Position numbers and translations under genes: made by a program | Shown: piece by piece, positions 18,160 to 41,688 of the stretch | How positions within the stretch are numbered: the stretch's first letter is position 1 | Layout: each line of letters starts with the position of its first letter | Notes under the pieces: generated by a model | What the model was told of the DNA's origin: nothing | Database searches by the model: none | What the model saw: the letters and a program-made list of their open reading frames with translations, nothing else | Virus record (IMG/VR): IMGVR_UViG_3300021559_000001 | Coordinates: 1 to 56,029 of that record | DNA length: 56,029 bases | Strand: one strand, 5' to 3' | DNA from: a virus | Taxonomy: Duplodnaviria; Caudoviricetes

Positions 18160-18331
18160 AAAGTTGCCTCTGTGATGAACCGCCGTTGCTCTGTCGGCGA
18201 CGAGTCAAAATTGCCAGTGCGCGGCGATAGCGTGCGCCGGTAGGATTGCCAGGCTTGGTACTCGATGCGGATCTGGGTCGCTGCGTAAATCACCGCGCTA
18301 CAGAAGTTGAAGAAGGGTTCCATGCCGGTTC

Positions 18332-20209: not shown

Positions 20210-20432
20210 CAGAAGCCTCCTTGGGGTTGAATCCGTGCTCTCTGCGCTATGATTGCTGTTGCGAGCGCGATCCTAGGCACATTGGCCGCGCACTGGCAAG
20301 CATAGAGCCGCAACGTACAGATGAGCCCAAACAAAAAGACTAAACTCAGCGCTAGAACGGCAAGTTTTGCAAACGTGCTCCATCCTCGAAACCGGAAGGC
20401 TTGCATCATGGCGCGATAAAGAAAATCCGGCT

Positions 20433-20666
20433 TCATAATGGTTTGGTCTCGACGGTCGTAACAATTTTGGCTTTCGGTAGCGCTGCGGCGATCCGCTCTT
20501 TAATTACTGGCTCCTCGTCGCTGAATCGGTTGATATCGCCTAAGTCGATTTGCGCCTCACCGACATGGTTGATGAGCAGCACGCTGGGATTCTCGGTTCC
20601 TTGCCCGTACTGGACGATCAAGTCCGCTCTCGCCGCTCCGCTCGATAGGCTGATGATGGCGCTCAT
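20433..20666 (-). CDS. Hypothetical protein (77 aa)
   Basis: ATG 20666 (MSAIISL) overlapping the upstream stop. Confidence 0.5.
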   Translation of the reverse strand: MSAIISLSSGAARADLIVQYGQGTENPSVLLINHVGEAQIDLGDINRFSDEEPVIKERIAAALPKAKIVTTVETKPL

Positions 20667-21487
20667 AGCAACCACGGGCTCCCGATCCCGCCTCCTACAA
20701 ATGCCGGAACGAACATGCCGAGTCCTGAAAGGCTGAAGCCCGCCACCTGGTTTTGCATGAGCTGATACCACTGGTCAATGGTGATGGGTGTGGTTCGATC
20801 CCCTATGGTGCCATCCGTCAAATTTGCGCCCACGGCGTTATAGCCGGTTGGGTCGATGTTGCCTGGGTCGACGGGGCAGGCGTTGCCGGAAATCTGCGTG
20901 TAAAAGTAGCACCATTCGTCGGTGCTGAACAATGCGCCACTGGCCAGCGCTGCCATTTTCTGCAACGTGGTTTGAATTGGTGGAGCGGGTACGCAAGCGC
21001 CCGCGCCATTGTCCACTAGGCCGCCAGTGCAAACGAGAGGTTGGTTCTGAGGAGCGGGTTGCACAACTGTCCATCCGCATTTCCCATCCGCTTGCTGGCT
21101 TATGCCGTTCAGTACCGCGACGGTTCCGGCCGCTGGACATCCTTGCGGTCCTCCTCCCAAAATCTTTGCCGCTGCCGCATCCGCTGCTGCCTTTGCGGCT
21201 GCGGCCGTCGCTGCTGCGGCTGCCGCTTGATCCGCCACGGCTTTTGCCGCCGCTGCGTCGGCTGCTGCTTTCTGCGCCGCCGCCTGGGCGGCCGCGTCGC
21301 CTGTATTCTTTTGAGCCGCTGCCGCTAAGACCGCTGCTTTATCGGCTGCCGCTTTCGCCGCTGCCGCCGCTGCTGCCGGATCGACCACCGCTGCCGCCAC
21401 GGTCACATTGAACGGCCACAGCTTTTCTATGTAGGCGTAGGCGAGGTATCCCCCGACGCCGATCAGGAGAATGGTCGTGGTGTCCAT
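20663..21487 (-). CDS. N-terminally anchored Ala-rich coiled-coil virion protein
   Basis: MDTTTILLIGVGGYLAY TM, AAAKAAAD repeats, C-domain DEW..FY..DP..DQWY..GLGM. Confidence 0.7.
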   Translation of the reverse strand: MDTTTILLIGVGGYLAYAYIEKLWPFNVTVAAAVVDPAAAAAAAKAAADKAAVLAAAAQKNTGDAAAQAAAQKAAADAAAAKAVADQAAAAAATAAAAKAAADAAAAKILGGGPQGCPAAGTVAVLNGISQQADGKCGWTVVQPAPQNQPLVCTGGLVDNGAGACVPAPPIQTTLQKMAALASGALFSTDEWCYFYTQISGNACPVDPGNIDPTGYNAVGANLTDGTIGDRTTPITIDQWYQLMQNQVAGFSLSGLGMFVPAFVGGGIGSPWLL

Positions 21488-21498
21488 CTGCTGGGGCA

Positions 21499-22182
21499 CT
21501 ACTTCCCGCCTCCAAATAAAATTGCTCCAGCAATCGCCGCTATCGCTAGTCCAAGCAAACAATTTCCAAGTGTGGTAGTCGCCGGTCCGCAGGGATCGGG
21601 TTGACCGCAAGCCTCCGCGGCCGTCTGTGTAATCGAGGGCATGGGAGCAATCAACATGGCGCGGGTGAGAACCAGCTTCAGCGGTCCTGACTGGGGAGCG
21701 GGCTGCCGGCATCCGGGAATCTGATCCGCCCACGGTGCACATCTTGGATCGAGGCAGGAACTCACTCCCGTGTACCCCGCATTGGCGCAATCGGCGATGA
21801 GTTGCGCCCCTGCTTTCGATTGCGGAACGGCGCCGCACGCGATCTGTAAGCACGTATCCTCGTCCGGTTCGGGCCGGCCGTAATGCGCCATGAAATCCGC
21901 CGGTGATACCGCTCCCATCCCGCAGCCTTGAACCTGAGCCACGCCGATGGTCGGAGAGAGATCCGCTGGGCTGAGCATGCTTGGTTGCAAGGCTGGGGGA
22001 ACTTCAAAATCCGGGTAGTAGGTGAAGCCTGTAGGATGATTGTCGTTTCGCAGCCATCCCATCTCCTGATCGAATACTGGGGAGAGCTGGGTGATGTCGA
22101 AGGTGGATTGAGAAGGGGCTGTAGCATTGGTGATGAAGCCGGAGCCGCCTTCTTCTGTGCAGTACTCGATTACACCCAGCAT
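21499..22182 (-). CDS. Cys-containing membrane-anchored virion protein
   Basis: AAGGA RBS right after motif C'; GMGA; C-terminal TM. Confidence 0.65.
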   Translation of the reverse strand: MLGVIEYCTEEGGSGFITNATAPSQSTFDITQLSPVFDQEMGWLRNDNHPTGFTYYPDFEVPPALQPSMLSPADLSPTIGVAQVQGCGMGAVSPADFMAHYGRPEPDEDTCLQIACGAVPQSKAGAQLIADCANAGYTGVSSCLDPRCAPWADQIPGCRQPAPQSGPLKLVLTRAMLIAPMPSITQTAAEACGQPDPCGPATTTLGNCLLGLAIAAIAGAILFGGGK

Positions 22183-22244
22183 AAATTTCCTTTGGATTGA
22201 ATCCGTGCTGTCTGCGCTATGATTGCTGTTGCGAGCGCGATCCT

Positions 22245-22463
22245 ATGCAGCCTGCTGAAAAGCGCCTCTCCAAAACAATAAAGTCCATGCTTAATCGGCA
22301 TGCGGTGTTTCTTTTCGGAAACCGTTTCGGAGACTGCCCCGAAGTAGCACAGTATATTGTGGTGGCTCTTTGTAATTTTCAACTGCCGCGAGACTGCCGA
22401 ATCGAATTGTCCCGCGCAACGGCAAGCACGGAACCGCAACCGACAGGACCACCCAAACAATAG
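22245..22463 (+). CDS. Small cassette protein (72 aa)
   Basis: ATG directly after motif C', ends in motif B (RATASTE); same layout as 6578. Confidence 0.5.
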   Translation: MQPAEKRLSKTIKSMLNRHAVFLFGNRFGDCPEVAQYIVVALCNFQLPRDCRIELSRATASTEPQPTGPPKQ

Positions 22464-22465
22464 GT

Positions 22466-23410
22466 TCATCGCTTCACCATTAAAAATATCCCTACTCCTA
22501 CAGCCGCTAAGATTGCCCACATGGGAACAGAAGTTCCTCCGAGACTCACAGTCCCAGTGAAGAAACTGGAAGCCGTCGAACTCCCCGTCGCTGGAGTCGA
22601 AGTCGACCCGCCCGGGGCCGCAACCGTGAACCCGAAGGAAGCAACCTGCGTCGGACCCACTTTCCAGACTTCCTGCCAGCTTCCAATCTGATCGGAAGTA
22701 ATTTGCCCGTTGTAGCTGAAGTTTCCTTGGGCGTCTGTCGATCCGGTGTTCCCTACCGCGTTCGCTCCATTCTGCCCGCCTGTCACGGTAACTGGAGCAT
22801 TCGGCGAAGCACCTGAGATTTTCACTTGCCACTTGTCCCCGACTTGGAAGACGCCATTATTGCCGGAGGTCAGATTCGTAAAGGTGAACGATAATGGCGC
22901 CGCCTGGGCCGGAGGATTCGAACCCCCTCCCGGCAATGGCGGCCCGGTATAAACTGGCACGCCGGAAACCGGATTCCCATTGGCGTCGAGAATCAATTGC
23001 GATCCGCCCGGTCCAGCGCCGGCGTCGGACGTGTAACCGCCCGCGGGCGTCAGTCCATAGGTGCGAGAGGCGCAATCGGCTGGAGCGATTCCCTGGTTGA
23101 CGCAGTTGGTATAGTCCACCTGGAAATTCGCGTTGTTCGCCAGTTGCATCCGCGTTTGCTGCGCCTGGTGGAGTAGCGCTTGGCAGGTATCCGAGAATGC
23201 CGTCCCCCCTGGCCCTGCGTCTTGCAAGCACGATGGATTTGCAACTGCAGCCGGGGCAACGTAGGCTGCTCCACCTCCGCCGCCGAATTGCGCTTTGTAA
23301 GCATCCGCCATGGCTTGCTGTGCGGGAGTGTAGCCAGGCGTTAAGCCCATGCCGCGGAACGGGAATAAGGGAAATGGAGCTTGACGGACGGGCCGGAGGT
23401 CGAGGTTCAC
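22466..23410 (-). CDS. Membrane-anchored virion protein with an Ig-like C-domain
   Basis: RGMGL; beta-rich domain; C-terminal TM plus KR. Confidence 0.7.
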   Translation of the reverse strand: MNLDLRPVRQAPFPLFPFRGMGLTPGYTPAQQAMADAYKAQFGGGGGAAYVAPAAVANPSCLQDAGPGGTAFSDTCQALLHQAQQTRMQLANNANFQVDYTNCVNQGIAPADCASRTYGLTPAGGYTSDAGAGPGGSQLILDANGNPVSGVPVYTGPPLPGGGSNPPAQAAPLSFTFTNLTSGNNGVFQVGDKWQVKISGASPNAPVTVTGGQNGANAVGNTGSTDAQGNFSYNGQITSDQIGSWQEVWKVGPTQVASFGFTVAAPGGSTSTPATGSSTASSFFTGTVSLGGTSVPMWAILAAVGVGIFLMVKR

Positions 23411-24093
23411 AGGATCACCGCCGCGATCACCAGGCCGACACCAAGCAGTAAAGGCACGGGAAGCCCGGCCACTGTCGAGGTCGACGCCGAAGAGAGATCA
23501 ATACTGCTGCCCGATGAACTGGGACCGGCGTCTGGAATCACGTTCGGGTCGGTCGCAATCGGTACTCTATACGCTGTGATCCAATCGCATCCCGTGTGCC
23601 CTGGATTCGGACACCATGGCGCCGTACCCCCTTGCACCAGCCGTTCACTGATACACCGTTGGCCGGATGTTCCAAGCGCCGGATTCGAGCATCCCTGCTG
23701 AACCTTGTTAAGCGCTGCGTCGATCAGTTCAAGATAGGCCGCCTGGTTGGTTTGCGTCTTCTGTGAGGCGGGAAGGGATTGCCAACTCGCCTCCAGTTGA
23801 TTCAGTTGCGTCTCGATCTGATCGACAATGTGAGTCGCTTCGATGTTGGTTATATTCGGCGCGAACAAGCTGCCGATGAGACTTGTCAGTGCCCCCACGG
23901 CCGCGACAATCGCGCCGGGGAGCTGCCCGCCCGGTATCATGGCGATCACGCCGCCCGCGCTGAGAAGTCCAGACCCGATGGCGGAAGTGATCGGCCGCAC
24001 ATCACCCAAGCCGCGGTAGTATCCCAAGTCTCCAAGGCCTGGATGCCAGTAGGTTTGAGAATAGAAGGCGCGTTGGATTTGCGATTGCGTCAT
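23407..24093 (-). CDS. Membrane-anchored virion protein
   Basis: GLGDLG..RGLGD; hydrophobic hairpin; C-terminal TM. Confidence 0.7.
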   Translation of the reverse strand: MTQSQIQRAFYSQTYWHPGLGDLGYYRGLGDVRPITSAIGSGLLSAGGVIAMIPGGQLPGAIVAAVGALTSLIGSLFAPNITNIEATHIVDQIETQLNQLEASWQSLPASQKTQTNQAAYLELIDAALNKVQQGCSNPALGTSGQRCISERLVQGGTAPWCPNPGHTGCDWITAYRVPIATDPNVIPDAGPSSSGSSIDLSSASTSTVAGLPVPLLLGVGLVIAAVIL

Positions 24094-24347
24094 CGTTTCG
24101 CCCGTGCAACCTTCTTTAATGAGAAGCGTGTCAGCCCGTGATTCTTGGCATACTTCTTGGCCGCTGTCTTGGTTCGGAAGATCAGCGCCCCTTTCTTCTT
24201 CGGGTTCGACTTGGGCTTGCCCACCGTGCCCCCGATGACGCGGGCGATGGTCTTCGCCGCCCCGCGCGAGCTGGCCTTGACGAAAAACTTGCCTTGGCCG
24301 TCATAGACCCGGTTCGGATTCGCGCGCCGCTTCTTTCGTTTACTCAT
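24090..24347 (-). CDS. Small very basic Asn-Pro protein (putative DNA-binding core)
   Basis: KRKKRRANP..KSNPKKK. Confidence 0.7.
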   Translation of the reverse strand: MSKRKKRRANPNRVYDGQGKFFVKASSRGAAKTIARVIGGTVGKPKSNPKKKGALIFRTKTAAKKYAKNHGLTRFSLKKVARAKR

Positions 24348-24670
24348 CGGTTTTTCGCCATCCAGAATGCTCCTATAGCCAGAGCAATCAATAGAACCGT
24401 GCCGCCCGACATTCCCCCGCTGACTACGCCCGGTTGAACCGCCAGGTATCCGGTTGCTGTATTCGCGTAGGGATTGTAGCTCTGCTGGAGTTGCCCGCTG
24501 AGAAGCGTCGTCTGATAAGCCTGCTGGGCCGCGAGTAATGCCGCGGTTGCCACTTGAGCCGCAGCCGCGTCACTGGCAGCATCTCCAAGTCCCACTGATC
24601 CAACTGCGCTTCCGCGAGGACCGAGGAAAGGCATAGGAGGACGTCCGGGGAAGGGAGTAGCTATGTCCAC
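24344..24670 (-). CDS. Membrane-anchored virion protein
   Basis: AAAGGA RBS before GTG 24670; VGLGDA; C-terminal TM. Confidence 0.6.
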   Translation of the reverse strand: MDIATPFPGRPPMPFLGPRGSAVGSVGLGDAASDAAAAQVATAALLAAQQAYQTTLLSGQLQQSYNPYANTATGYLAVQPGVVSGGMSGGTVLLIALAIGAFWMAKNR

Positions 24671-24930
24671 AATGTTTCCTTTTCTGTGGATAAACCGCCG
24701 TCGTGCTGCCTTTGAAGGTTTCCGGTAATCGAGCCCGCCGTGGTTGTGATTGTGCCTGATGGCGCAATGTGAATGGGTGGCATCACGCAGCCCGTCATCG
24801 TAAATGTGGCTGCCTGAGGTATCGTTTGAATCTGAATTGGTCTGCGACCCACCTGAACAGTCGCGCCGGCCGCCGCGCTCCCGCGATTCAGAAGCGGTTT
24901 CCAAAACAGTAGCCAAAGTAAACGCTTCAT
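24661..24930 (-). CDS. Hypothetical protein ending through motif A
   Basis: ATG 24930 (MKRLLW) overlapping the upstream stop. Confidence 0.45.
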   Translation of the reverse strand: MKRLLWLLFWKPLLNRGSAAAGATVQVGRRPIQIQTIPQAATFTMTGCVMPPIHIAPSGTITTTAGSITGNLQRQHDGGLSTEKETLWT

Positions 24931-25670
24931 CGCAACACCAGCCAGGCAAGAATCCCTAATCCCACCAAAACCAAACCAGACCAATCGAACCCATCAATGG
25001 GCCACTCTCGTTTCTTTCCATACGGATTCGGAGCTTCCCACCCTGGATAAGGACCGTGTGAAACATCCAGAGCGATTCTTCCGGAAGGCGGATAGCAAGC
25101 CGCGTACACATGAGAGTAACGATTCGGGTCTCGAGGGTCGACGGCCACGGTTACAAAGGAACACGGAATGCCAAGAGCTCGTAGCAAGGAAGGCGTGTAC
25201 TGAGCAAAGCCGTCGCAGTCTTCCAGGGGCCGATTCATCTGGGCAAGATCCTGGGGCCGTACCAGCCACTCCACAATCTCTCCGCTGAAATTCCCAGCCC
25301 ACGGCGCCGAGGAAACCTCGTCCCGCTGGAAGCCTACCTTATTCTTCACGTGCCAGAACGCATCCGAGCACGGATCGCCTGAACCATTGGCGGCTACATA
25401 TTGAGCCTCCTGCTGGATCGGAGCCGAGCCCGAATCGGCTTGCACGTACCGCCGCATCATGTCGATGGTCTGCGCTACCTGGGTGTCTGGATCGGCAGAC
25501 AAGGGGATCGCGTGCCAGTTCACTACTTCACCAAACGCGGGATGGTAGGCTGCGCCTGTCATGAATTCCGCCCGGTCAAGCACGGGAGCCTGACCGGGGT
25601 TGCCGGGGAGAATCACATCGTATCGGTTGACATCAGGCCCAAGCTTGGACCGTAACACCTTGACAATCAA
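24927..25670 (-). CDS. Transglutaminase-like (Cys-His-Asp) protein, putative virion maturation protease, C-terminal TM
   Basis: EDCDGFA..LLRALGIP..FVTV..YSHVY..ALDVS. Confidence 0.75.
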   Translation of the reverse strand: MIVKVLRSKLGPDVNRYDVILPGNPGQAPVLDRAEFMTGAAYHPAFGEVVNWHAIPLSADPDTQVAQTIDMMRRYVQADSGSAPIQQEAQYVAANGSGDPCSDAFWHVKNKVGFQRDEVSSAPWAGNFSGEIVEWLVRPQDLAQMNRPLEDCDGFAQYTPSLLRALGIPCSFVTVAVDPRDPNRYSHVYAACYPPSGRIALDVSHGPYPGWEAPNPYGKKREWPIDGFDWSGLVLVGLGILAWLVLR

Positions 25671-25749: not shown

Positions 25750-27633
25750 ATTCCGGTTGACACTGAGCTTTCCCCGCCGCCGAAACGCGCCCAAGGCAGG
25801 CCAAAGCGCGTATCGAAAACGCCAGGGGATCGACCTATAGAGCCTGCCCGCGCCGAATCCGAATCAACTCCCCCAATAAAACCGCAGGAACCCGCCCCAG
25901 CGCCCGAAACTCCCGCCAAACAGCCTTTCTCCTGGGACCGTACACAAGAGGAAGACCGGCTGAAGCGCGCGCCATTCCCCCCAGTCCCCGGCAATGCAAA
26001 GAAGGTCCCCTTCCCCATCTTCGCCAATTATCGGAACGCCATCCCTACCATTCAGGGTGTACACGCCGTGGTCTATGTGCAGCGCTGGCATCCCGTCATG
26101 AAGCCGGTTACCCGCGTCGATGACGATGGCAGGAAGCATGTCGAGAGGCCCAACTGCCTCAAAATCCATCTGGAGGACGGGCCGATCACAGAGCAACTGA
26201 TTTATCAGCAACTAGGGGCAGGGGATTACTCGTTTCGATTGAACGATTCCCGTATCCGCTTGAATGCCGACCCGAACGCCGCGACCGTGGTTTATTCGGA
26301 GCTTAAGGGTAATCGCAATTGGAACGACCAGCCGCCCACTCTCGATTATAAGCAACTCGATTTGACCGATCCGGCGAACGCCAGTTTTATCACCTGGGCG
26401 CGATCAAGAAACCTCTTACCCCCGGAAGGCGAACAGCATAAACAGGATAGCGACATGGCACAAAGCGCGGTAGTTGATAATCTTCTGGATATGGGCAAGG
26501 AAGACCGCGCCCGCCTGGACCGGCTTCAGCAACAGCAACTCGAAAAGGCCGAACGGGAAGCGCGTGAAGCAAAAGCCCGTATTGAAGAGTTGGAAGCAAA
26601 ACTCAACACTCCAACTCCGGTAGAGGGTAAGAAGGAGGATAACGGCATCGTTGGCACGGTGAGCGCCCTGGTCGATATCGTCAAAGCCATCAAGCCCGAG
26701 CCGGACAACTCCCTATCCGCCTATCTTGCTTTACAGATGGAACGCGAGAAAACCCAGCGGGAACAAGATCGCGCCGACCGGCAGGCCGCGGCCGATAATG
26801 CGAAGATCGAACGGGACCGCGCCGACAAGCTGCAGAACGAGATTTTGGCCGATCTGCGCAACCGGGCCAATGTCGCGCCCGTCGCCCCTCCTGCTCAGAA
26901 AACCCTGCTCGAGCAATTCCAGGAGGTCGAAGCCTTCCAGGGAGTCGCGAAGCGTATCGCCCGCGGAGGTCCCGGCGAAGAGGAGCCGGTCAAGGTTGGA
27001 ATGGCGGAGAAAATCATCGAAGCGATACCCGCAGTGGCCCCGATCATCGGGAATTTGTTCACTTTAGGCTTCCAAACCTTCCAGCAATGGAGTCATAATC
27101 AAGCAGTGATCGCCATAGCCAAAGGCGGTAAGACTCCTGAGCCGACGCCGGCCGCAACTCCAGCCGCAAATGGTCAACCCGCTGCGGTTCCCGCAGATCA
27201 GCCTATGCCCCCTACCCTCACGCCCGAACAAGTAGCCCAGCAGCAGCAGTTCACCTTCTATATGCAGATGTTGAGCATGGCCGCGCCGAAGATGCTCAGC
27301 TTTCTCAAGAAAGATATCGAAGATCCCGGCTTCCAGTTCGCCGCCTGGGTGATCGAGAATGCGCCGCATGAACGCGCGGACTATGACGCCATCCGCGAGC
27401 TAGGGATGGAACAGGTGACCGGAGAGCATGGAACGCTGGTAAAGCAGTTCAACCTCGCGCGGGCGAAAATGAACATTCTGAATCTGGTTCAGCATCACCC
27501 GCAGCTTTCCAGCGCCGTAGGTCCGATCCAATCCCGGTTCGATACGTTCCTGGACCAGTTCTTTAACTATGACGAGATCATGGCCGAGCAAGAGCAGGAT
27601 AATCCAGGACCGGAAGGAGCGCCACTGCAATGA
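25750..27633 (+). CDS. Large coiled-coil protein with a Pro-rich N-terminus and a hydrophobic segment (probable ATT start)
   Basis: Frame open from 25711 to 27633; GGAGG precedes ATT at 25750; first canonical start is 26068. Confidence 0.7.
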   Translation: MPVDTELSPPPKRAQGRPKRVSKTPGDRPIEPARAESESTPPIKPQEPAPAPETPAKQPFSWDRTQEEDRLKRAPFPPVPGNAKKVPFPIFANYRNAIPTIQGVHAVVYVQRWHPVMKPVTRVDDDGRKHVERPNCLKIHLEDGPITEQLIYQQLGAGDYSFRLNDSRIRLNADPNAATVVYSELKGNRNWNDQPPTLDYKQLDLTDPANASFITWARSRNLLPPEGEQHKQDSDMAQSAVVDNLLDMGKEDRARLDRLQQQQLEKAEREAREAKARIEELEAKLNTPTPVEGKKEDNGIVGTVSALVDIVKAIKPEPDNSLSAYLALQMEREKTQREQDRADRQAAADNAKIERDRADKLQNEILADLRNRANVAPVAPPAQKTLLEQFQEVEAFQGVAKRIARGGPGEEEPVKVGMAEKIIEAIPAVAPIIGNLFTLGFQTFQQWSHNQAVIAIAKGGKTPEPTPAATPAANGQPAAVPADQPMPPTLTPEQVAQQQQFTFYMQMLSMAAPKMLSFLKKDIEDPGFQFAAWVIENAPHERADYDAIRELGMEQVTGEHGTLVKQFNLARAKMNILNLVQHHPQLSSAVGPIQSRFDTFLDQFFNYDEIMAEQEQDNPGPEGAPLQ

Positions 27634-27708
27634 GCTCACCCCCCGCAGTCATCTTTCGGACCGGAAGGAGCGCCACTGCAATGAGCTCACCCCCCGCAGT
27701 CATCTTTC
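27607..27708. repeat. 51-bp exact tandem duplication covering an RBS and start codon
   Basis: ggaccggaaggagcgccactgcaatgagctcaccccccgcagtcatctttc x2. Confidence 0.9.
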
Positions 27709-28304
27709 AAAATGTAGGCGATTACATCAAGAGCATGCAGGACCGCCAAGAGGCCATAGATAACCTCTGCCACGCGCTACACGCTTTCTTATCGCAAGGT
27801 ATCCAGGCTGGTATTCAATCGGCCAAGCAGCCGCGCCCGAAGCCGCCCCGCCCCACTATCGAGGATCTGAATAAGGCCCAGGAGAAACTGGACCTGATGC
27901 ACGCCCAACTTGAAGCTCTGCAAAACATGTGCGAGGACATGCCCGATAAGTTCGGTGAGATGATGCGACTCACACAGATGCCGCAGATTCAGCGATGGCT
28001 GGAAGAGGCAGAAAGAGAAGTCGCCTATATCCAAAAAGCGATCGAGGAACCGGAGCCAGAACAGGGTAGCCCATGGGACGGATCTCATCAGCTTTCTGCC
28101 CTTTGTACGATCTGCGCGAAGGGATCAGACCAAGTTGCCTCTTCACCCAAGGTGTTGAATCGCGCAATCATGGAGGCTGGATGGGGCCGTGATTCAGAAG
28201 GTGATTTTCTTTGCCCGGATTGTTTCGCAGCTACCAAAAACCAGCAGCCGTCCGCCGCGCTCCCGTCCACTTCAAACCCAGCCGACAGCACGACCGAGGT
28301 TTAA
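27630..28304 (+). CDS. Coiled-coil protein with a C-terminal Zn finger (CxxC..GW..CPDC)
   Basis: AAGGAG RBS; CTIC/CPDC. Confidence 0.7.
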   Translation: MSSPPAVIFRTGRSATAMSSPPAVIFQNVGDYIKSMQDRQEAIDNLCHALHAFLSQGIQAGIQSAKQPRPKPPRPTIEDLNKAQEKLDLMHAQLEALQNMCEDMPDKFGEMMRLTQMPQIQRWLEEAEREVAYIQKAIEEPEPEQGSPWDGSHQLSALCTICAKGSDQVASSPKVLNRAIMEAGWGRDSEGDFLCPDCFAATKNQQPSAALPSTSNPADSTTEV

Positions 28305-28309
28305 CGCCA

Positions 28310-28615
28310 ATGTTCCTACTAGAAATAGATGATGACGCCTTCCGGGTAGTAAACCCCTCAGGAGAATTCGATGAACCAAGACCCTTTATGGATGTCTCAA
28401 CCATAGACTACCAAGGGAAAGTGTACGGAGCCTTCTTGCAGGGGAAAGAAGAGGAGTTGACTACGGGCAAGGTGTACGATCTTTCCAAGTGGCCAGTGCT
28501 TGTAGAGGTTCCATGCCGGATCGATCCGACAGAATTCGCCTACGACGATGACGAACCAGACGGAGAAGTGATCGACGTAGAGCCCGTTGTAGGAAAGTTA
28601 GGGCCGGTGGAATGA
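28310..28615 (+). CDS. Acidic hypothetical protein
   Basis: RBS GAGGT supplied by the end of motif A. Confidence 0.6.
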   Translation: MFLLEIDDDAFRVVNPSGEFDEPRPFMDVSTIDYQGKVYGAFLQGKEEELTTGKVYDLSKWPVLVEVPCRIDPTEFAYDDDEPDGEVIDVEPVVGKLGPVE

Positions 28616-29841
28616 AACGAAAACAACGAGAACAGAAGGGGCTGCTATCCGACAGGGCCGTTATTGAACGGTTCAACCAGATCACCGGCGCCAATGCCGC
28701 AACTTCAGATGAGTTGAATAAGCGGCAGGAGAGGGATAAACCGCCGTTCAAGAATCCGCCAAGGTTTCCGGCTGTCGAAAGCGCGGAGGAATTGTGAGAC
28801 TGCGCCGAGTCTACCGACGCCGGAATGTCAAACTGACGGCGAAGCAGGAGAAATTACAAGCCGCGCGCGATATCCACGAAATGCGGGCCAGTATTCTATG
28901 TACTGGAGCCGCTCTAGCGCTTGCGAAGTCTTCAGATAATCTGACAGCCTTCGATTATTTGCGCGACATCATCAACACCGAGGTTGCAGAAGCCGTATTG
29001 GATGCGAGCGCCGCCGAGAAGCGTTACGATGAATCCTTTGGGGTTACGCGCATCGATGCGGAATTCGTAAAGCGACATCCACCGCGCGCAGACAAAGCCA
29101 AATCCTCTCCGAAGCAGAAAGCCAAAAACAAAAAGCTTTTATGATGCCACAACCAACCCCCCAGCAGTTAGACCAGATGATTCAATCCTTCCAGTCGCGA
29201 CTGGATGCGAAAGTGTTGGAGCGGGGCTCATTGATGAGCTTACGCGGTCATTCCGGCATGATCGCCGATGGTATCGCATCCTTAGCCGTCAATCGGCATG
29301 TGTCCTTCGAGTCCGTAGAGTCTTTCGTTGGGGCTGATCCTGATCGCAATGGGTTGAAAGACGCGCTATTCAACCTCTGGACAGCCCAAATCGCCACCTT
29401 GGATATCGACATCAAAGAAATATCCTTCAACCTCCAGGTAGCCAAGCAAGCCGCTGCGCAACAGAAAAGCGGGATTCTCCTGGCAGGCACCATGCCGCCC
29501 AATAACCGGAAGGTCTGATGAAGCTGAAACGTCTTTGGTTCCAACTCCTGGACGCCATTCAAAGCGATTGGAACCAGCTCGGTCCGCAAGTCGATCCAAG
29601 CCTGTGGCCCAGGAAACTCCGCCGTCGATGGCTCAAGTGGGGCAGGGACTACGGCCAGTACACCCGCCGCGGTCGAAGGTTCACGCGGTTCGATAATGCA
29701 ACCGATCGCGCCGGCCGTGTGATTTCTCGAGGAAACCGCGGATGGGCCTGGTTCTGCGATAATTGTCACGACTACTCGATTACAAGAAACCCTTGGGATG
29801 GGTGTACAAGATGTAATTTTCTACCAGGAGCGCCGGAGTGA
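28612..29841 (+). CDS. Four coupled hypothetical ORFs (28612-28797, 28794-29144, 29141-29518, 29518-29841)
   Basis: Overlapping start/stop codons; the last has CxxC..CxxC. Confidence 0.6.
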
Positions 29842-30530
29842 AACAAGACAGACGCGGGTTTTTGAAATTGTTTGGTATATCGACGGCGGCAATCGCGGCT
29901 GCCCCAACAGTCGCGGGCGCAGAGCCGACCGTGGAAGTGATTCGGGCTGAGACTTCAGCGCCGCCACCGCTTCCTGGACGCGCGTTCGAACCGTACTTCG
30001 ACCGCGAGCGGACTATGGCTATGGATGTGCGGGACGAACCGCTCTGGAGTCAAGTGCGCATCGAGCGCAATGAGATGCGCGGCGACTACGTTTTATTCCA
30101 GGACTCGGCTGGGAATGGTTCGCCGATGTTCCCCGATGGAGTGACGCTGGCTGAAACCAACATGCTGAGGCCCGGCTGTTTGCCAGAACCGGAGATGTAT
30201 TGCATTCAGAAAATTGGTTTCGTCTTTTCACCATCCACGATTCCGGCGTTACGCTCCGCGTTCATTGACCGCTACGAATTGAATCTGAGCTTGGGCCGTA
30301 AGCGCCACTGGGAAGCGCCACTCTCGCAGGTGTTTTCAGTTGCCGAGCCAGAGCGAAAAGAGGATTTCGCGGAACTGCCGGATGCGGGATTCTACAGGCT
30401 CGATATCCCGCTAATAATCGAAGCTGGCCTCTGGTTCGGGCTTCATCTGATCGGCAACCCGATTCACCCATGCGGCAGAATCAAGGCCTGGGGAGTCTTC
30501 AAAGGCCTGCACGCTTGCGGAATCCAGTGA
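29838..30530 (+). CDS. Tat-signal-bearing paralog of the putative major capsid protein
   Basis: MKQDRRGFLK twin-arginine signal; MDV..EP..TL..TNM..P..L..PE..GRK..GLHA.GIQ aligns with ORF 9660. Confidence 0.8.
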   Translation: MKQDRRGFLKLFGISTAAIAAAPTVAGAEPTVEVIRAETSAPPPLPGRAFEPYFDRERTMAMDVRDEPLWSQVRIERNEMRGDYVLFQDSAGNGSPMFPDGVTLAETNMLRPGCLPEPEMYCIQKIGFVFSPSTIPALRSAFIDRYELNLSLGRKRHWEAPLSQVFSVAEPERKEDFAELPDAGFYRLDIPLIIEAGLWFGLHLIGNPIHPCGRIKAWGVFKGLHACGIQ

Positions 30531-30599
30531 CTTCCCCCGCGCAATGCCGATTGATGGACCCGTGGCGACCCTTGAGCCCAACGCCAAAAGGATTTTCTC

Positions 30600-30950
30600 G
30601 TGTTTGAAAACTTCTCACCTATCAACGATCAGCTACTCATTAAAGTATTACCCTCTCCCTCAGAAGAGAAGGGAATCGTCATCCCGGATTCAGCCAAGCC
30701 GAAAGCCATCTTCGCGGATGTGATCGCAGTCGGGCCGGGGAGGAGGGGCCGATTGTTGCGTTGCGCCAGGTGCGCGGATCGTTTCATCCCCGAGCGTCTA
30801 TCCCTCGACGTGAAACCTGGAGACCGCATCGTCTTCCACCCGGCCGTACGCTCCTACAGGGCAAGAGAAGCGGAAGTAGATTTACAGTCTCAGCAGGAAA
30901 CCATCATCATCCGCGAGGATTCGGTGCTGGCGGTAATTGAGTCCGACTGA
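30600..30950 (+). CDS. groES: Co-chaperonin GroES/Cpn10
   Basis: PINDQLLIK..GIVIPDSAK.K..VIAVGPG..VKPGDRIVF..IIREDSVLAVIE. Confidence 0.9.
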   Translation: MFENFSPINDQLLIKVLPSPSEEKGIVIPDSAKPKAIFADVIAVGPGRRGRLLRCARCADRFIPERLSLDVKPGDRIVFHPAVRSYRAREAEVDLQSQQETIIIREDSVLAVIESD

Positions 30951-32520: not shown

Positions 32521-33447
32521 TTAGGTTGGGTTAGCTTGCATCAATTCCAGCAACGGCGGCGCTTTCTCTTTGTCGCTGACTAGCCGCTCTGCCTTCTTGA
32601 CATTCCGCAACGCCTGGTCGCAGTACGATTCTTTCAACTCGAAGCCGATGGCTTCCCTTCCTTCCTCGATGGCTACGTACGCGGTCGAACCGATTCCCAT
32701 ATACGGATCTAAAACCAGCTCGCCGGGATTGGTCCAGAGTTTGATGCATCGCCGGATGACTTCGAGCTGCAGCGGGCAGACGTGCTTTTCTTCGTCGCTT
32801 TCGCGTGCGGATTTCCAGCCTTCCAACACATCGGTCTCGCGGATGTCGGTCCACACGCCGTGGGCATCCCGGATCCATTCTTCTTGGGTGACCCAGCCGT
32901 GCGGATTCTTGGTCGCGTGCTTCAAGCAGAGCACTGGCGTCGATTCCCCTGGCTTCTGAAACTGGAGTACGTAATCGTTAACGGCCGGCGAAAGGTCGCG
33001 CGCGTTCCGGGAGTGGCCCGTCATAAATTGCAGCGAATGAAGCGACAGGCGCTTGGCGATGATTTGCGGATTCTTCGGGATGACGAACTCGCCCCGGTAT
33101 TCAAATCCGCCCGCGCAGCATAGATCGATCACAGCGCCGCGGAAGTCTCGCCGTCCCATGTAGCCGTGCTGGTTCTGATAGCGGAGCAACTGCTGGATGT
33201 GGATACATACGTTGCAGCCCGGCTTCATCACGCGGTAGAGTTGGTGCACGAAAAAGCGCATGTGCAGCCCGAAGCCTCCGGCCTTCATGTCGGTTCCATC
33301 CTGGTTGTTGCCGACGTCCTCCGGCTTGCCCGAATACATGAAGAGCGCACCGAACGGGATGCTGGTAACGCACAGGTCACACGAATCCGGCATGAGGTAC
33401 TTCGTCATGCCGGGGATTCCATCGCAGTTCCAGATTTGAGCGCTCAT
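32521..33447 (-). CDS. DNA methyltransferase (N6-A/N4-C, beta-class order)
   Basis: Catalytic-like TSIPF near the N-terminus; HVCPLQ; SAM-binding VLDPYMGIGST near the C-terminus. Confidence 0.9.
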   Translation of the reverse strand: MSAQIWNCDGIPGMTKYLMPDSCDLCVTSIPFGALFMYSGKPEDVGNNQDGTDMKAGGFGLHMRFFVHQLYRVMKPGCNVCIHIQQLLRYQNQHGYMGRRDFRGAVIDLCCAGGFEYRGEFVIPKNPQIIAKRLSLHSLQFMTGHSRNARDLSPAVNDYVLQFQKPGESTPVLCLKHATKNPHGWVTQEEWIRDAHGVWTDIRETDVLEGWKSARESDEEKHVCPLQLEVIRRCIKLWTNPGELVLDPYMGIGSTAYVAIEEGREAIGFELKESYCDQALRNVKKAERLVSDKEKAPPLLELMQANPT

Positions 33448-35141
33448 GCGGCTATCAGTCCTTTCAGGGCTTCCAGATAATACTTTTCCTGTTCGTCGGC
33501 GTCTTGCTCGAAGCTGTTTTTCTTTCGGAGCACGTTCTCCATCACTAGACCTTCGAGGTGCCGAATGATCGGAAGGTGGATATGGACGGTGTTGGTTTGC
33601 CCGTAGCGCAGGGCCCGGCGCACGGCTTGATAGAAGCGCTCATAGGAATCGTCCCAGCCGGAGAAGATCATCGACGTACAGCACTGGAAGTTCATTCCGA
33701 AGCCGAGCAGTGACGCCTTACTAATCAGGATATCGAGTTGCCCCTTGCGGAATTTCTCGATCAGTGAGATTCGGTCCTTCTGTTTGACTTTGCCGTCCAG
33801 CAAACATGAGCCGATTCCCCGCGCGGCCAATTCTTCCGCGATCAGTTGCCCTTCCTCGTCGAATACGGTCCAGATGAGCACCTGGCGGCCGGCTTTCATT
33901 TCCGCAATGGCGACATCGGCAACTCTCGCCGGCTTCAGCGAGGGGATGAGCCTGACCGTGGTTTTCTTGCCTGTCTTTTCGTAAATGAATCCCTTGGCGA
34001 TTTGGCTCAACTTGGTCCGCTGAACCACGCCGATATTCTGCGTTCCGAGCAGGCCTGCGCCGGCCTCGAAATAGATGCGGTTCTGTTCGTCGATCTGTTC
34101 CGGCGTCGGGTCGATGTCGTATTCATGGAAAACTGGGGGTGGAATCGACGCGAGATTATCGGACCATCCGTACATTTTCGGATTGCGGAGATAGATCGAC
34201 CATGAAGCCAGAAAGCGGTAGAACCCTTCGCGCGCGTGAGGCTTGATGCGCCATTCCCCTTTCTTGTCCCTGGAAAAGAAGGTCCACAGGATATCACTCT
34301 CGGTTCTGAGTTTCTCGATAAACGCCGCCTGGCTCGCGTACTCCATTACCTCGTTGGGCGCCGGGGTCGCTGTGCAGGAGAGTTTATATTCGATCCCCTT
34401 GGCGGATTTGATCAGGTTCCACTTGATGACGCCGCCGCCTGATTTCAGGATTGAGGATTCATCGCAGATCAGGCCGCCCAGCAACCGGAGTTGCGGTAGC
34501 AAGCCGGGAATCATCTTGTCGTAGTTCGTGATTGCCAGTTCGCAGCCGGGCGCTTCGAGCCATTCTTCCAGTTCCTTACGGGTCTCCAGTTTCTTGACTA
34601 GCAGGGCATCGCCGTAGAATTTCGTGGACTCATCGCAGGTTTGCTCAATGATCTGCAACGGCGAAAAGATCAGCACCTTGCGACCGATCGCTGCCAGGAC
34701 ATGCCGCGCCCATTCCAGGAACATGGCCGTCTTACCTAAGCCGCAATCGGCGTAAATCGCATACCGCTGCGCTTTCAGTGCCTGCTTGACGATGAATTGC
34801 TCATAGTCGAACAGGTACGCGGCGATCTGGAGTTTCTCTGCTGGTGTCGCCGGGGCCGGGATGCCGAGCATTGGAAGAAACCGCGCCGGCGTGCTGATGG
34901 TGTAGGAATCGCTCTCCCAGTCGTAGGTGGTTTGGAATTCTGGAAGCCTTTTGCAGTTCAGGAATAGGTCGTAGTGGGCGAGGTCGAAGGTGTCGAAACA
35001 AATACGGGCCGTCGAGCCGTCGATCTGAATTCCCCCGCGCAATGCCGATTCTGAATCGGGCGGTACCGTCGAGCCCAAACCATCTTGAGTCTGATTTTCC
35101 AAGGTGGGCAGTACAGATGAGGCCAAACTATCCGTTTCCAT
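33444..35141 (-). CDS. SNF2-like SF2 helicase
   Basis: ADCGLGKT, ICDESS, CTATPAPN, GFGMNFQ, QAVRRALRYGQ. Confidence 0.9.
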   Translation of the reverse strand: METDSLASSVLPTLENQTQDGLGSTVPPDSESALRGGIQIDGSTARICFDTFDLAHYDLFLNCKRLPEFQTTYDWESDSYTISTPARFLPMLGIPAPATPAEKLQIAAYLFDYEQFIVKQALKAQRYAIYADCGLGKTAMFLEWARHVLAAIGRKVLIFSPLQIIEQTCDESTKFYGDALLVKKLETRKELEEWLEAPGCELAITNYDKMIPGLLPQLRLLGGLICDESSILKSGGGVIKWNLIKSAKGIEYKLSCTATPAPNEVMEYASQAAFIEKLRTESDILWTFFSRDKKGEWRIKPHAREGFYRFLASWSIYLRNPKMYGWSDNLASIPPPVFHEYDIDPTPEQIDEQNRIYFEAGAGLLGTQNIGVVQRTKLSQIAKGFIYEKTGKKTTVRLIPSLKPARVADVAIAEMKAGRQVLIWTVFDEEGQLIAEELAARGIGSCLLDGKVKQKDRISLIEKFRKGQLDILISKASLLGFGMNFQCCTSMIFSGWDDSYERFYQAVRRALRYGQTNTVHIHLPIIRHLEGLVMENVLRKKNSFEQDADEQEKYYLEALKGLIAA

Positions 35142-35741
35142 TTACTTTTTCTCCGTGTTTGAATTCAGAATCGCGTCACCGTTCAAAAGTGAGGTCCGCC
35201 CACTGAGGATCAATTTCTTTTCAGTGCGCCAGTCGTATAATCCTTGGAGTATCCCGTGGATGTCGAGATTGCCGGCGTACGCCTCTTCGCAGATGCGCTG
35301 TATCTCGCGGTCGCAGCGGGCGAGGTCTTCAGCCATTCGCGTTCTCCTCTGAACATGCTGCCTGATGAAATTCAAGTTGTGGTCCTCCGTAATGTAATTG
35401 CTGCGCTGCTTTGTCTTGGCAGAAGTCTAGCCATCTTCGGATAACTTCAGCTGCGTCCCCCTCGGCTACTTGATAGGAGCCGTCCGCATACGTTAACTCG
35501 ATTCGGACACAGGGTACGCTCATGCGGGAATGTCCTCTGGCAGCATCTTCTGGCCTAGGAGTTTCCGCGCTCGGTCGAGTGTGTCCAGCGCCTTCAATAA
35601 TTCTATTCCCAACTCATCGTATGGCAGTGGCGCTAGTTTGTCGCAGGCTGCTTTGATGTTTAGCTTCGCGGTCTCCAGCGCCTCATCGGCTTCCAATTCT
35701 CGGATGAACCGCTCGCATTCCGGCTTGATATTGTTCGTCAT
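35142..35741 (-). CDS. Small hypothetical ORFs (35142-35375, 35329-35523, 35520-35741)
   Basis: Closely packed minus-strand ORFs between dnaB and the helicase. Confidence 0.5.
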
Positions 35742-37063
35742 TCTAAATCCTCCGCGCGATTTTCAAAGGCTGTAATGTGGCCCAGCCAGGTTAGCTCGAT
35801 TTTGCCGGTTGGTCCGTTACGCTGTTTCCAGAGCAGTAATTCCGCCATGCCGTGCAGGTCCTCACGTTCCCGATGGAGCATCTCTGGGCGCCACACGAAG
35901 GCTACTGCGTCGGCGTCCTGCTCAATACTCCCAGAGTCTCTCAGGTCATGAAGCGCTGGCGCGCGGCGCTCTTTCAGATTGTCCCGGTTTAACTGTGACA
36001 AGAGGTGTACATTCACATCCTCGTCAGCGGCCAGGAGTTTCAATTGCCGGGTGATCTCGGAGACTTCCGCGTTCCGGTTGGCGTGCTTTCCTATCGATTG
36101 CAAAAGTTGAAGGTAGTCGATTACCACCATGAAAACATCCTGCTGCTTGGTTTTCTTCCGCCGAACCGCGGCACGGATCGCGCTCACGGTCGAGATTCCA
36201 TATTCGGCGATCCAGAGCGGCCAACTCAAGATTTGCTGGATGGCTTTCTGTATCCGCGTGCGTTCATCACTGTTTAGATATCCGGCCCGGAGTTTCGCGC
36301 CATCGACTCGGGAAAGGGTGCACATCATCCGCGTGAACAATGAGGCCCGCGACATCTCTAGCGAAAAAATCAGAACACCCAATCCGGCTTGAGCTACAGC
36401 CATGGCAACCTGAACCGCGGCCGCACTCTTACCCATCGATGGATTGCCGGCGAGCAAAAATAGTTCCTTGCGCCTGTACCCCCCGGTCATATCGGTCAGT
36501 TTCACCCAGGGGGTTTTGACGAAGGTCGCGGTTTGGTGGGGATTCAAGAAACGGTCAAGTCCTCCAGACTGTTCGATCACCTGTTCCAATCCCAGCATCT
36601 CGGCGGTCTGCTCCGGCTTGTAGCCGATCTTTGTGAGCGCATCTTCAGCCAGCGCGATCAGTTCCTTTGAGTCGCCTTGCTTCGCTACGCAGCGGTCGAT
36701 GAGATTTTGTGACGCGAAAATTATTTTACGGAGGGCCGCTTTCTCGCGGATGATGTCTACGTACGATTCCACGCTGGGCATCTCCGGCAACCCGACATCA
36801 AGTGAGGTAAGGTAGCCTACCCCATCCACCGAGGCGAGCTGCTGGCGGTCGTTCAGATAACTGGCAATTGTGATTCGATCGATCTCCAGCCCGGCCGTGT
36901 CCATCGCCTGTAACGCGGCATAGATGCGTCGATGTTTCTCGAGCGTGAAATCGTCCGCCGTGAGAAGTTGAAATACTTCGGCGTGCTTCTGATGTTCCAG
37001 GATAATCGATCCTAAAACCAGGCGCTCCGCTGGCAGGTCGCAGGGTAGGGCTATCTCGTTCAA
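35738..37063 (-). CDS. dnaB: Replicative DNA helicase DnaB
   Basis: AGNPSMGKS, FSLEMS, VIDYLQL, LSQLNR, DLRDSGSIEQDAD, KQRNGPTG. Confidence 0.95.
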   Translation of the reverse strand: MNEIALPCDLPAERLVLGSIILEHQKHAEVFQLLTADDFTLEKHRRIYAALQAMDTAGLEIDRITIASYLNDRQQLASVDGVGYLTSLDVGLPEMPSVESYVDIIREKAALRKIIFASQNLIDRCVAKQGDSKELIALAEDALTKIGYKPEQTAEMLGLEQVIEQSGGLDRFLNPHQTATFVKTPWVKLTDMTGGYRRKELFLLAGNPSMGKSAAAVQVAMAVAQAGLGVLIFSLEMSRASLFTRMMCTLSRVDGAKLRAGYLNSDERTRIQKAIQQILSWPLWIAEYGISTVSAIRAAVRRKKTKQQDVFMVVIDYLQLLQSIGKHANRNAEVSEITRQLKLLAADEDVNVHLLSQLNRDNLKERRAPALHDLRDSGSIEQDADAVAFVWRPEMLHREREDLHGMAELLLWKQRNGPTGKIELTWLGHITAFENRAEDLE

Positions 37064-40546: not shown

Positions 40547-40675
40547 TGCGGCCACTCCATCGGAACACCTTGCCCGTAATAGGCAATCCAGAACGAAACC
40601 AGCACCACGAAGCCGCCCAGCACAGCCGCCGCGCACTGTCGAGCACGGGGCAGGGTCGATAGATAAGCCCAAATT

Positions 40676-41687: not shown

Positions 41688-41688
41688 T

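Follow-up and report, generated by a model that had tools for sequence, protein, structure and literature searches.

To our knowledge, bacterial viruses make and assemble their virion-type proteins in the cytoplasm, the known exception being the filamentous phages with their Sec/YidC route. SPV1 encodes a basic DNA-binding protein; we know of no packaging ATPase in this virus, nor of any capsid protein of P23-77, HCIV-1, HHIV-2 or SPV1 that carries a twin-arginine translocation (Tat) signal. T5 Llp and Cor are exclusion lipoproteins, and in diderm hosts the Tat route delivers its substrates to the periplasm only, not to the outer surface. Here we describe a gene (29838-30530, plus strand) of the virus record IMGVR_UViG_3300021559_000001 whose product, hereafter the Tat protein, joins a predicted Tat signal peptide to a domain modelled as a single jelly-roll. 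A paralog lacking the signal, hereafter the partner, is encoded at 9660-10385 on the minus strand. The window, by which we mean the whole stretch of DNA analysed, is a complete virus record of 56,029 bp with direct terminal repeats in the source record and a G+C content of 55.9%.

Searches of the literature brought to light no Tat substrate that is naturally encoded by a virus and related to a capsid protein. On the subject of phages, the accessible part of a review of the Tat pathway mentions only PhiX174 E/SlyD, T4 RI and PspA, and the papers on pleolipoviruses that were consulted report a signal peptide on the spike protein VP4, giving no Tat type. In the available parts of the respective sources, T4 RI is described as a phage periplasmic protein with a cleavable signal (PMC8385771), the Tafi pili of haloarchaea as using the Tat route (PMC12337348), and Tat hitchhiking as a process that carries signal-less partners (PMC4273604), these cellular Tat-dependent beta-sandwich pilins and the hitchhiking being the nearest analogies to what is proposed below.

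Our preferred reading, to which we assign a probability of roughly 45% with its mechanism and role included, is that the Tat gene is a duplicate of a virion-module jelly-roll gene in which the N-terminal arm was swapped for a twin-arginine signal peptide. The gene begins with GTG and encodes 230 amino acids (aa), which divide as follows (pLDDT, predicted local distance difference test score of the AlphaFold2 model):

29838-29921 (+): twin-arginine signal peptide, residues 1-28, with n-region MKQD, core RRGFLK, h-region LFGISTAAIAAAP and c-region TVAGA
29922-29945 (+): residues 29-36 (EPTVEVIR), a conserved stretch with which the predicted mature protein begins, a beta-strand in the model
29946-30005 (+): Pro-rich hypervariable linker, residues 37-56, with variable, gapped alignment columns and block pLDDT 51-54
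30006-30530 (+): single jelly-roll domain, residues 57-230 plus the stop codon, ending in GLHACGIQ

The N-terminus, MKQDRRGFLKLFGISTAAIAAAPTVAGA followed by EP, contains an RRxFLK core, an h-region of Ala, Gly, Ser and Thr, and an A-x-A site; residues 4-10 (D-R-R-G-F-L-K) fit the (S/T)-R-R-x-F-L-K consensus of Tat substrates. A database search yielded a set of 23 orthologs, the window's own protein included, with 49-100% identity. In the family alignment R5, R6, F8, L9, F12, G13, A17 and A18 are invariant in all 23 proteins, and K10 is conserved in at least 90% of them. The preliminary description of this locus had pointed to a Tat consensus RRxFLK followed by an h-region, and both the sequence and this conservation bear it out. 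The TIGR01409 model matches residues 4-23 of the Tat protein (E 0.021, just short of its cut-off) and 18 of the 23 orthologs at E≤0.1 (best E 0.0043), the sole other family match in the set being to another Tat-target model; PF10518 (TAT_signal) matches 2 of 95 diverse superfamily representatives. Within the genome, a loose filter for RR plus a hydrophobic stretch was passed by 3 of the 414 open reading frames (ORFs) of at least 50 aa, and ORF 29838-30530 alone has the motif at its N-terminus.

The start codon and its surroundings comprise the following elements:

29518-29841 (+): upstream ORF of 107 aa with Cys-x2-Cys pairs, whose TGA overlaps the GTG of the Tat gene
29826-29830 (+): Shine-Dalgarno sequence AGGAG, read directly from the sequence, 7 nt 5′ of the GTG
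30600-30950 (+): GroES-like co-chaperonin gene, directly 3′ of the Tat gene

Since the GTG/TGA overlap is the usual sign of translational coupling, the Tat gene appears to be coupled to ORF 29518-29841, for which Pfam and PHROGs hold no matching family. Both lie within a tight plus-strand operon (26068-30950). Orthologs begin at an ATG with the same MKQDRR... N-terminus, and that of the related locus L005 is preceded by AAGGAG at the same spacing. When the first 20 codons are compared between the window and two related loci (L004 and L005), 13 show synonymous changes only, 6 change the residue and 1 is identical, both Arg codons of the RR pair being among the 13. The conserved N-terminus and the largely synonymous changes show that the signal region is translated and subject to purifying selection, which excludes a downstream start; starts at M59 or M61 were considered and are ruled out by the same conservation. 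The preliminary description had allowed that its proposal would fall if the real start lay downstream, an objection that the orthologs' ATG and the 13 synonymous-only codons remove.

Across 60 Tat-type sequences (one of which, P0023, was mis-parsed), the h-region has a median length of 16 aa and a mean Kyte-Doolittle hydropathy of 1.22, and in 52 of the 60 the charged residue that comes first behind it is acidic. The h-region of the Tat protein itself is uncharged and mildly hydrophobic, as in Tat substrates, and falls below the threshold used for a transmembrane (TM) segment (hydropathy 1.6 over 19 aa). A signal peptidase I site is predicted after A26-G27-A28, with small residues at -3 and -1 and E29-P30 following; by eye, an A/I/L/T/S-x-A/S site precedes a conserved [ED]P in about 20 of the 23 orthologs. 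Given the length and hydropathy of the h-region, the acidic first charge and the sub-TM segment, a cleavable Tat signal fits better than an anchor. A plain TM anchor is unlikely on account of the low hydropathy, and a lipoprotein signal is ruled out because no Cys occurs in residues 1-60 or in the signal region of the orthologs. Judged from the sequences, this is a genuine-looking Tat signal under purifying selection, predicted to direct export.

Behind the predicted cleavage site, P30 and E33 are nearly invariant among the 23 orthologs. AlphaFold2 places a strand at residues 31-36 (TVEVIR; block pLDDT 74-76), and by eye an x-[VIF]-E-x-[VI] pattern returns in deeper Tat-bearing relatives. Similarity to the partner sets in beyond the linker. 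BLASTP aligned residues 61-230 of the Tat protein with residues 61-241 of the partner ORF (24% identity, E 4e-8), and hhalign of the two families aligned 57-230 with 57-241 over 156 columns (98.9% probability, E 1.1e-17). Both C-termini read GLHA(C/R)GIQ before the stop codon, the GLHA-coding pattern having served to locate the partner ORF. The first 56 or so residues are unlike, consisting of a disordered arm and a helix in the partner and of the signal and linker in the Tat protein. The preliminary description had the two proteins aligning along their whole length; residues 57-230 are indeed homologous to the shared C-terminus, but the N-terminal ~56 residues differ. Four profiles detected no further member of the superfamily in the genome, none of the other ORFs scoring below E 0.3, so that the genome has exactly two members.

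The AlphaFold2 models, built with the family alignments, are of moderate confidence (Tat protein, pLDDT 72.6 and predicted template modelling score 0.70; partner, 71.6 and 0.62, with the jelly-roll spanning residues 60-241). Their strands and single helix run parallel from residue 60 on, so that the common fold on which the preliminary description depended is recovered, both proteins modelling as single jelly-rolls. A VIA-align structural search of 48,161 chains matched both models to jelly-roll-type chains only, and the two lists are dominated by jelly-roll capsid proteins; common to both are single-jelly-roll capsid proteins, the KHP40 cement protein, fibre tips and Ena fibres. The best match of the partner was 6oj0_T of SPV1 (Z 7.3, root-mean-square deviation 3.2, 134 residues aligned); 75 chains reach Z≥5 and none reaches Z≥8. 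For the Tat protein it was 1stm_A (Z 6.5, deviation 3.6, 122 residues aligned), with 6oj0_T at Z 6.1, 18 chains at Z≥5 and, again, none at Z≥8. With this method a best Z of 7-8 is typical of models that have no clear relative; since the values lie in this generic range, the fold points to no specific family or function. A Foldseek search of the PDB gave a single match at E≤0.001 for the partner model, Ena3A (8pdz_A; E 4e-4, template modelling scores 0.21/0.37), and none for the Tat protein model; Ena2A, Ena1B and Ena1C stand in the VIA-align lists at Z 4.3-6.1, and weak Foldseek matches in BFVD include CRESS-virus capsids. As far as topology can be judged from the models and their matches, the fold class of both paralogs is a viral-type single jelly-roll. 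The label of putative major capsid protein (MCP) that had been given to the partner is not sustained by these generic matches (best Z 7.3), which name no family.

The superfamily to which both proteins belong is large. When 1.84 billion representatives were searched exhaustively with a profile, the yield was 1,603 clusters at E≤0.001, 463 at E≤1e-10 and 32 at E≤1e-30. A regular expression for a Tat-type N-terminus recognized all 23 members of the Tat family, none of the 65 of the partner family and 37 of 148 new representatives; by eye, three more signal carriers (one an RK variant) and three degenerate remnants were added. The signal is thereby carried by at least 50 of 160 representative rows, in a library clustered at 50% identity. 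Trees were built from the jelly-roll domain only, with the signal region removed (160 rows of at least 170 aa, 180 columns). In FastTree, one pure clade (local support 92) unites 52 of the 53 Tat-type rows, the lone exception (P0198) having a signal of different appearance. In IQ-TREE (LG+G4, short search), the Tat label needs 3 changes, whereas shuffled labels need 44.6 on average and none of 500 shuffles needed so few, and all Tat-type rows fall within one set of 73 rows (Shimodaira-Hasegawa-like approximate likelihood ratio test, 96). The well-supported branches are compatible with a single origin of the signal. When the tree is rooted on the partner, a root that is not established, 19 signal-less rows lie inside the smallest clade holding all Tat-type rows, which would fit a derived signal.

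This superfamily has escaped annotation. Pfam, PHROGs and NCBIfam hold no family for the jelly-roll domain of either paralog, and 95 diverse superfamily representatives gave isolated single-member matches only, with no Pfam or PHROG family tied to the domain. Searching 50,697 phage records with the partner by tblastn revealed no member in a cultured phage, a superfamily profile found no solved structure among PDB sequences, and a profile from the Tat-family alignment found no related loci in viral contigs. In the ESM Atlas only unnamed viral clusters were matched, the nearest named entry, the PM2 coat P2_N/P2_C, scoring 0.76, within the chance range.

Comparison of related loci places the Tat gene in a different light from that of the window. 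In the window, the Tat and partner genes are 20 kb apart on opposite strands. In L003, whose ortholog is 83% identical, a GroES-like gene again follows. In L004, by contrast, a single strand carries, in order, a PHTILQ-type gene and the genes for a basic/hydrophobic protein, the partner homolog, a protein of the 140-aa family, the Tat protein and a protein of the 295-aa family; here the Tat gene has a 10-nt spacer before it and is one gene away from that of the partner. In L005 and L006 (46% identity) the Tat gene lies on the same strand upstream of the basic-protein/partner pair. Both paralogs, and the adjacency of the basic-protein and partner genes, are kept in the window and in L004, L005 and L006. 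The preliminary description had placed the gene outside the structural operon, on the other strand and next to groES. This holds for the window and its close relatives (for groES, L003) but not for L004, L005 and L006, where the gene lies within the jelly-roll module; its position outside the module beside groES is therefore a recent rearrangement. Among the full-length proteins of these loci, moreover, the Tat protein is the best conserved: its identity to the L004 and L005 orthologs is 58% and 46%, whereas the partner reaches 39% and 27% and the remaining full-length proteins of the module lie at 27-35%.

The GroES-like neighbour matches Pfam Cpn10 (PF00166) above its cut-off (E 9.7e-12; 45.2 bits against 21.1) and phrog_3188 (E 2.1e-9), and its scores with the NCBIfam GroES models are all under their cut-offs. 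An insertion at about residues 49-68, bearing a Cys-x2-Cys motif, splits the Cpn10 match into two stretches. The adjacency of this gene is suggestive as regards folding of the Tat protein, but it is kept only in close relatives.

Taken together, the following course of events may be proposed. The Tat protein is translated from the GTG at 29838 in coupling with the upstream ORF, as sequence and conservation show, and its jelly-roll would fold in the cytoplasm, possibly as an oligomer and possibly aided by the adjacent virus GroES. Host TatBC would then recognize RRGFLK and move the folded protein across the cytoplasmic membrane; the invariant motif makes such recognition and export likely. Signal peptidase I would cut between residues 28 and 29, after A26-G27-A28, as the A-x-A pattern before [ED]P suggests, leaving a mature protein in which a flexible linker rich in Pro joins the conserved, putative EPTVEV strand to a jelly-roll on which the family surfaces, GLHAxGIQ included, are kept. 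This protein may act at the periplasmic side through surfaces shared with its paralog. As to its role, we tentatively suggest, at somewhat less than even odds, a core component on the envelope side that serves the virus in its own assembly or exit, that is, a structural or morphogenetic partner of a membrane-associated virion. Such a role is favoured by the core-gene behaviour of the Tat gene and by its position inside the module in L004, L005 and L006, and an optional immunity gene is less likely.

Several observations weigh against this reading. With 15.2 bits, the TIGR01409 score of the Tat protein is just below the cut-off of 16.7, and at E≤1 the protein is not reported by Pfam TAT_signal. 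A basic 'Sec-avoidance' residue is lacking in the c-region, and a clear A-x-A site is wanting in many deeper relatives, so that some Tat-type copies may stay anchored. That the host possesses a Tat system is assumed. In the window, the gene sits among small Zn-ribbon-type ORFs, a setting that looks early or middle rather than late. Both structural models are of moderate confidence and all of their matches lie within the generic range; the context of a membrane virion is drawn from hydropathy and negative searches only, and the automatic labels of related Atlas clusters read 'Uroviricota'.

The best surviving alternative, put forward in the preliminary description as one example beside an egress factor, holds that the exported paralog is a decoy for superinfection exclusion or against readsorption, occupying from the periplasmic side an envelope component used by the virion jelly-roll. 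A paralog of a virion-module protein that keeps conserved surfaces and carries an export signal would suit this task, the window's gene does lie in a non-structural operon with small regulator-like ORFs, and there are periplasmic proteins of phages that have a cleavable signal and influence superinfection, T4 RI being an example in the available part of its source (PMC8385771). We nevertheless regard it as unlikely. The Tat gene is conserved across a deep clade, and more so than the neighbouring module proteins, which favours a core function over an optional exclusion decoy; it lies inside the structural module in L004 and L005. The partner is not established as a receptor-binding protein, and in a diderm host Tat would bring the decoy to the periplasm only, and not to the outer surface.

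The genes around the partner are relevant to the kind of virion that this genome encodes:

9660-10385 (-): partner, the paralogous jelly-roll without signal; probable true start M10 at 10358
10444-11433 (-): hyper-basic protein of 329 aa (22% K+R, 0% D+E), directly upstream of the partner gene
11450-11800, 11819-12799, 12816-13205 (-): three paralogs ending in ...PHTILQ
8574-8996, 7632-8165, 6744-7631, 4270-5166, 2537-3304 (-): beta-rich paralog family, the last member assigned by eye only
18332-18949, 19179-19772, 22466-23410, 24344-24949, 24927-25670 (-): ORFs with a single C-terminal anchor ending in K/R, within 16169-25670
23407-24093, 16835-17782 (-): multi-TM ORFs

The ESM Atlas copy of the partner begins at residue 10. 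The 64 homologs of the partner that were found are about 219 aa long, the closest being 64-69% identical, and most members of the family have a C-C-x-x-C loop cluster (...QGCCDxC...) aligned to residues ~176-185 of the Tat protein, which the window's own copy lacks (...LGTASGTS...). The case for the partner as major capsid protein is indirect and not a demonstration, consisting of the jelly-roll fold, the beta-rich module and the lack of an HK97 match. In the product of 10444-11433, a hyper-basic stretch of about 190 N-terminal residues with NPHR/KRKR repeats is followed by a Gly/Ala-rich hydrophobic C-terminus; its closest relatives are at most 44% identical. An HK97 capsid protein, considered for this ORF, is ruled out by the hyper-basic composition and the hydrophobic tail, and the protein is a candidate membrane-anchored DNA-condensing protein. 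Among the PHTILQ paralogs, 11819-12799 has an Ice_binding-like beta-helix domain (PF11999, E 9e-63) before the shared C-terminal domain. The beta-rich paralogs have no match in Pfam or PHROGs; 6744-7631 and 4270-5166 share DNA stretches of 73-77% identity (repeat families D1 and D3), and homologs in L004 connect 8574-8996 with 7632-8165 and 6744-7631 with 4270-5166.

Further upstream of the partner, a run of membrane proteins, C-terminally anchored or multi-TM, spans 16.8-25.7 kb. In the minus-strand run 16169-25670, several ORFs start with a ...LRGMG... motif (by eye), 24927-25670 has a borderline match to a transglutaminase core, and the 85-aa ORF 24090-24347 contains 33% K+R. Two further large, beta-rich ORFs have signal-peptide-like N-termini from an internal Met, namely 53385-55484 (minus strand; MRRFYAGASAAAVVLGMVLFAGSAQG...) and 3-530 (minus strand), which is joined over the circular junction to 55466-56029 (MKLTLITLFLGTLLQAQQ...); it may therefore be that several proteins of this virus are exported. 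No match to a terminase, portal or HK97 capsid protein was obtained with 27 ORFs against PHROGs and 27 against Pfam, very divergent versions being possible. Of nine ORFs of at least 390 aa, seven have no match and the other two encode DnaB and an SNF2-like helicase, the only plausible genes with a Walker A motif, and no FtsK-type packaging ATPase is recognizable in the window. Eight ORFs of L005 had no Pfam or PHROG match, PDB sequence searches with the 699-aa and 506-aa ORFs returned nothing meaningful, and a 'lysozyme-like' assignment of 52356-52877, made by eye, found no support and was dropped. This pattern is compatible with a membrane-containing, non-tailed jelly-roll virion and equally with a very divergent tailed phage.

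In a second alternative, the Tat protein would be the second capsid protein of a two-jelly-roll capsid and would not be exported, its RR/hydrophobic N-terminus docking to the cytoplasmic face of the membrane or to TatBC and so linking the shell with a viral membrane. In its favour are a pair of paralogous single jelly-rolls, exactly two per genome and both kept in relatives, a module rich in membrane proteins, and structural neighbours that include the capsid proteins of SPV1, HCIV-1, HHIV-2 and P23-77. A complex prediction with the two domains gave a weak signal (median 0.39 from runs of 0.47, 0.38 and 0.39; best of three controls 0.00), the runs agreeing in at least 58% of contacts with a partner pLDDT of at least 73. 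In calibration, 58 of 80 solved complexes passed the mark, as did 2 of 110 mismatched pairs; 7 of the 80 solved complexes and both passing mismatches stand at 0.60 or less, so that a score at this level is more often wrong than right. Moreover, what is invariant is the exact Tat consensus and not just a hydrophobic helix, the h-region lacks the length and hydrophobicity of a stable anchor, and in about 20 of 23 close orthologs (by eye) a conserved A-x-A site stands between the signal and [ED]P. Nor was the sphaerolipovirus-type arrangement of two adjacent MCP genes beside a packaging ATPase found in the window, where the two genes stand 20 kb apart on opposite strands, no such ATPase was found and Walker A motifs among plausible genes are confined to DnaB and the SNF2-like helicase. 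We consider this explanation quite doubtful.

A third possibility, which we hold to be distinctly improbable, is an exported, self-polymerizing fibre in which the cleaved N-terminal strand is donated to the next jelly-roll, as in Tafi pili or Ena fibres, to form a virus-induced structure of the envelope. The succession of signal, conserved beta-strand, flexible linker and beta-sandwich resembles such subunits; Ena3A is the partner's only Foldseek match in the PDB at E≤0.001, with other Ena proteins among the VIA-align matches; and a Tat-exported, strand-donating beta-sandwich pilin is described for haloarchaea in the accessible part of PMC12337348. The Ena matches, however, have template modelling scores of just 0.21/0.37 and stand amid generic jelly-rolls, conserved Ena-type cysteines are absent (the mature part has from 0 to 6 Cys), and the signal-less paralog has the same core, so that the fold alone does not imply a fibre. 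Finally, that the N-terminus is a chance resemblance or a decayed signal without a role, as the sub-threshold TIGR01409 score and the degenerate N-termini of three relatives might suggest, is very hard to reconcile with a motif that is invariant in 23 of 23 orthologs beside a hypervariable linker, changes only synonymously at both Arg codons and 11 others, and is carried by at least 50 of the 160 representative rows.

To return to the exported, core-gene reading, it is tempting to carry it one step further. The contigs of about 55-60 kb might represent an undescribed non-HK97 virus with a membrane-associated single-jelly-roll virion and a membrane-anchored, protamine-like protein that binds DNA, set partly outside the cytoplasmic membrane, the Tat paralog forming an extracytoplasmic layer, spike or exit structure and perhaps carrying hitchhiking partners along. 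This extension is a long shot; if true, it would make the host Tat translocase an essential virus assembly factor.

The remainder of the genome includes bacterial-type genes:

32521-33447: DNA methyltransferase
33444-35141: SNF2-like helicase
35738-37063: DnaB helicase (TIGR00665, E 1e-108)

The window also contains one copy of tRNA-Met. Among the sequencing runs listed as containing the sequence there is no RNA run; the single one is a DNA run, which may be the source of the record. For inference of the host, a scan with DnaB was uninformative, its single match being 32% identical and in a metagenome-assembled genome, and a profile search with the partner-family alignment found no prophage copies in species-representative genomes.

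Two repeat motifs recur along the genome. A 16-nt core, CCCCGCGCAATGCCGA, part of a repeat of about 65 nt, has 15 matches within 3 mismatches as against 1.35 expected. Thirteen of the 15 copies are on the plus strand whatever the local gene orientation, and some are inside genes; positions include 2481-8531, 30535, 32360, 35033 and 40627-43470, among others. A 20-nt motif occurs nine times in the window as against 0.01 expected. Its reverse complement is found just upstream of the start codons of several small genes for beta-rich proteins, and the motif might accordingly serve as a conserved 5′ leader or as part of a promoter; in translation, it accounts for recurring 'QHDGGLP' peptides in spurious long intergenic ORFs.

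30535-30550 (+): copy of the 16-nt motif just 3′ of the Tat gene stop codon
465-484, 1828-1847, 3125-3144, 5182-5201, 8103-8122, 24689-24708 (+): plus-strand copies of the 20-nt motif
28286-28305, 46098-46117, 52335-52354 (-): minus-strand copies of the 20-nt motif

A capsid-type jelly-roll that carries a Tat signal throughout a deep radiation would, if confirmed, identify the first virus family that depends on an export route for folded proteins, and would show, in a clean natural case, how a capsid fold has been put to new use beyond the cytoplasm. The analysis also draws attention to a superfamily of 1,603 clusters without Pfam or PHROG family, solved structure or cultured phage, and to a virus lineage without recognizable terminase, portal or HK97 capsid, which raises the question of particle architecture. 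The combination of Tat substrate and viral jelly-roll may well be novel, and the type of virus behind it has a modest chance of being new in kind.

How does the Tat protein compare with described systems? With bacterial Tat substrates (TIGR01409, PF10518) it shares an S/T-R-R-x-F-L-K-type core, a mild Ala/Gly-rich h-region, an A-x-A site and a compact passenger able to fold before export. It differs from them in being virus-encoded, in having a capsid-type jelly-roll passenger without a cofactor motif, in scoring just under the cut-off of the hidden Markov model, and in that its export is predicted. The paired capsid proteins of P23-77 (VP16/VP17), HCIV-1, HHIV-2 and SPV1 likewise are two paralogous single jelly-rolls of about 200-240 aa in one genome, and they figure among the best structural neighbours, with Z values within the generic range (6oj0_T, 7.3/6.1; 6h9c_D, 6.0/4.5; 3zmn_A, 5.3; 6h82_b, 5.3). 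There is, however, no sequence similarity to them, and here the genes are non-adjacent, no packaging ATPase was found and the genome, of 56 kb, has bacterial-type DnaB and GroES.

The cement or decoration jelly-rolls of the tailed phages KHP40 (7dou_4), GP4 (8h89_J) and Pam1 (7eel_H) are comparable in being small and encoded in the head region, and match at Z 4.4-5.7, but these phages have HK97 capsid, portal and terminase genes, none of which is detectable here, and their jelly-rolls are cytoplasmic. With the haloarchaeal Tafi and the Ena appendages the likeness is that of an exported beta-sandwich subunit with an N-terminal strand and a linker; those systems are cellular, the Tafi sandwich is a 3+5 variant, sequence similarity is absent, and strand donation in the present case is hypothetical. 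The T4 antiholin RI and the proteins Llp and Cor, lastly, are virus proteins that cross the cytoplasmic membrane and act on lysis timing or superinfection, but they do so with Sec-type or lipoprotein signals, are not paralogs of virion proteins and have a narrow distribution, whereas the Tat gene described here is deeply conserved.

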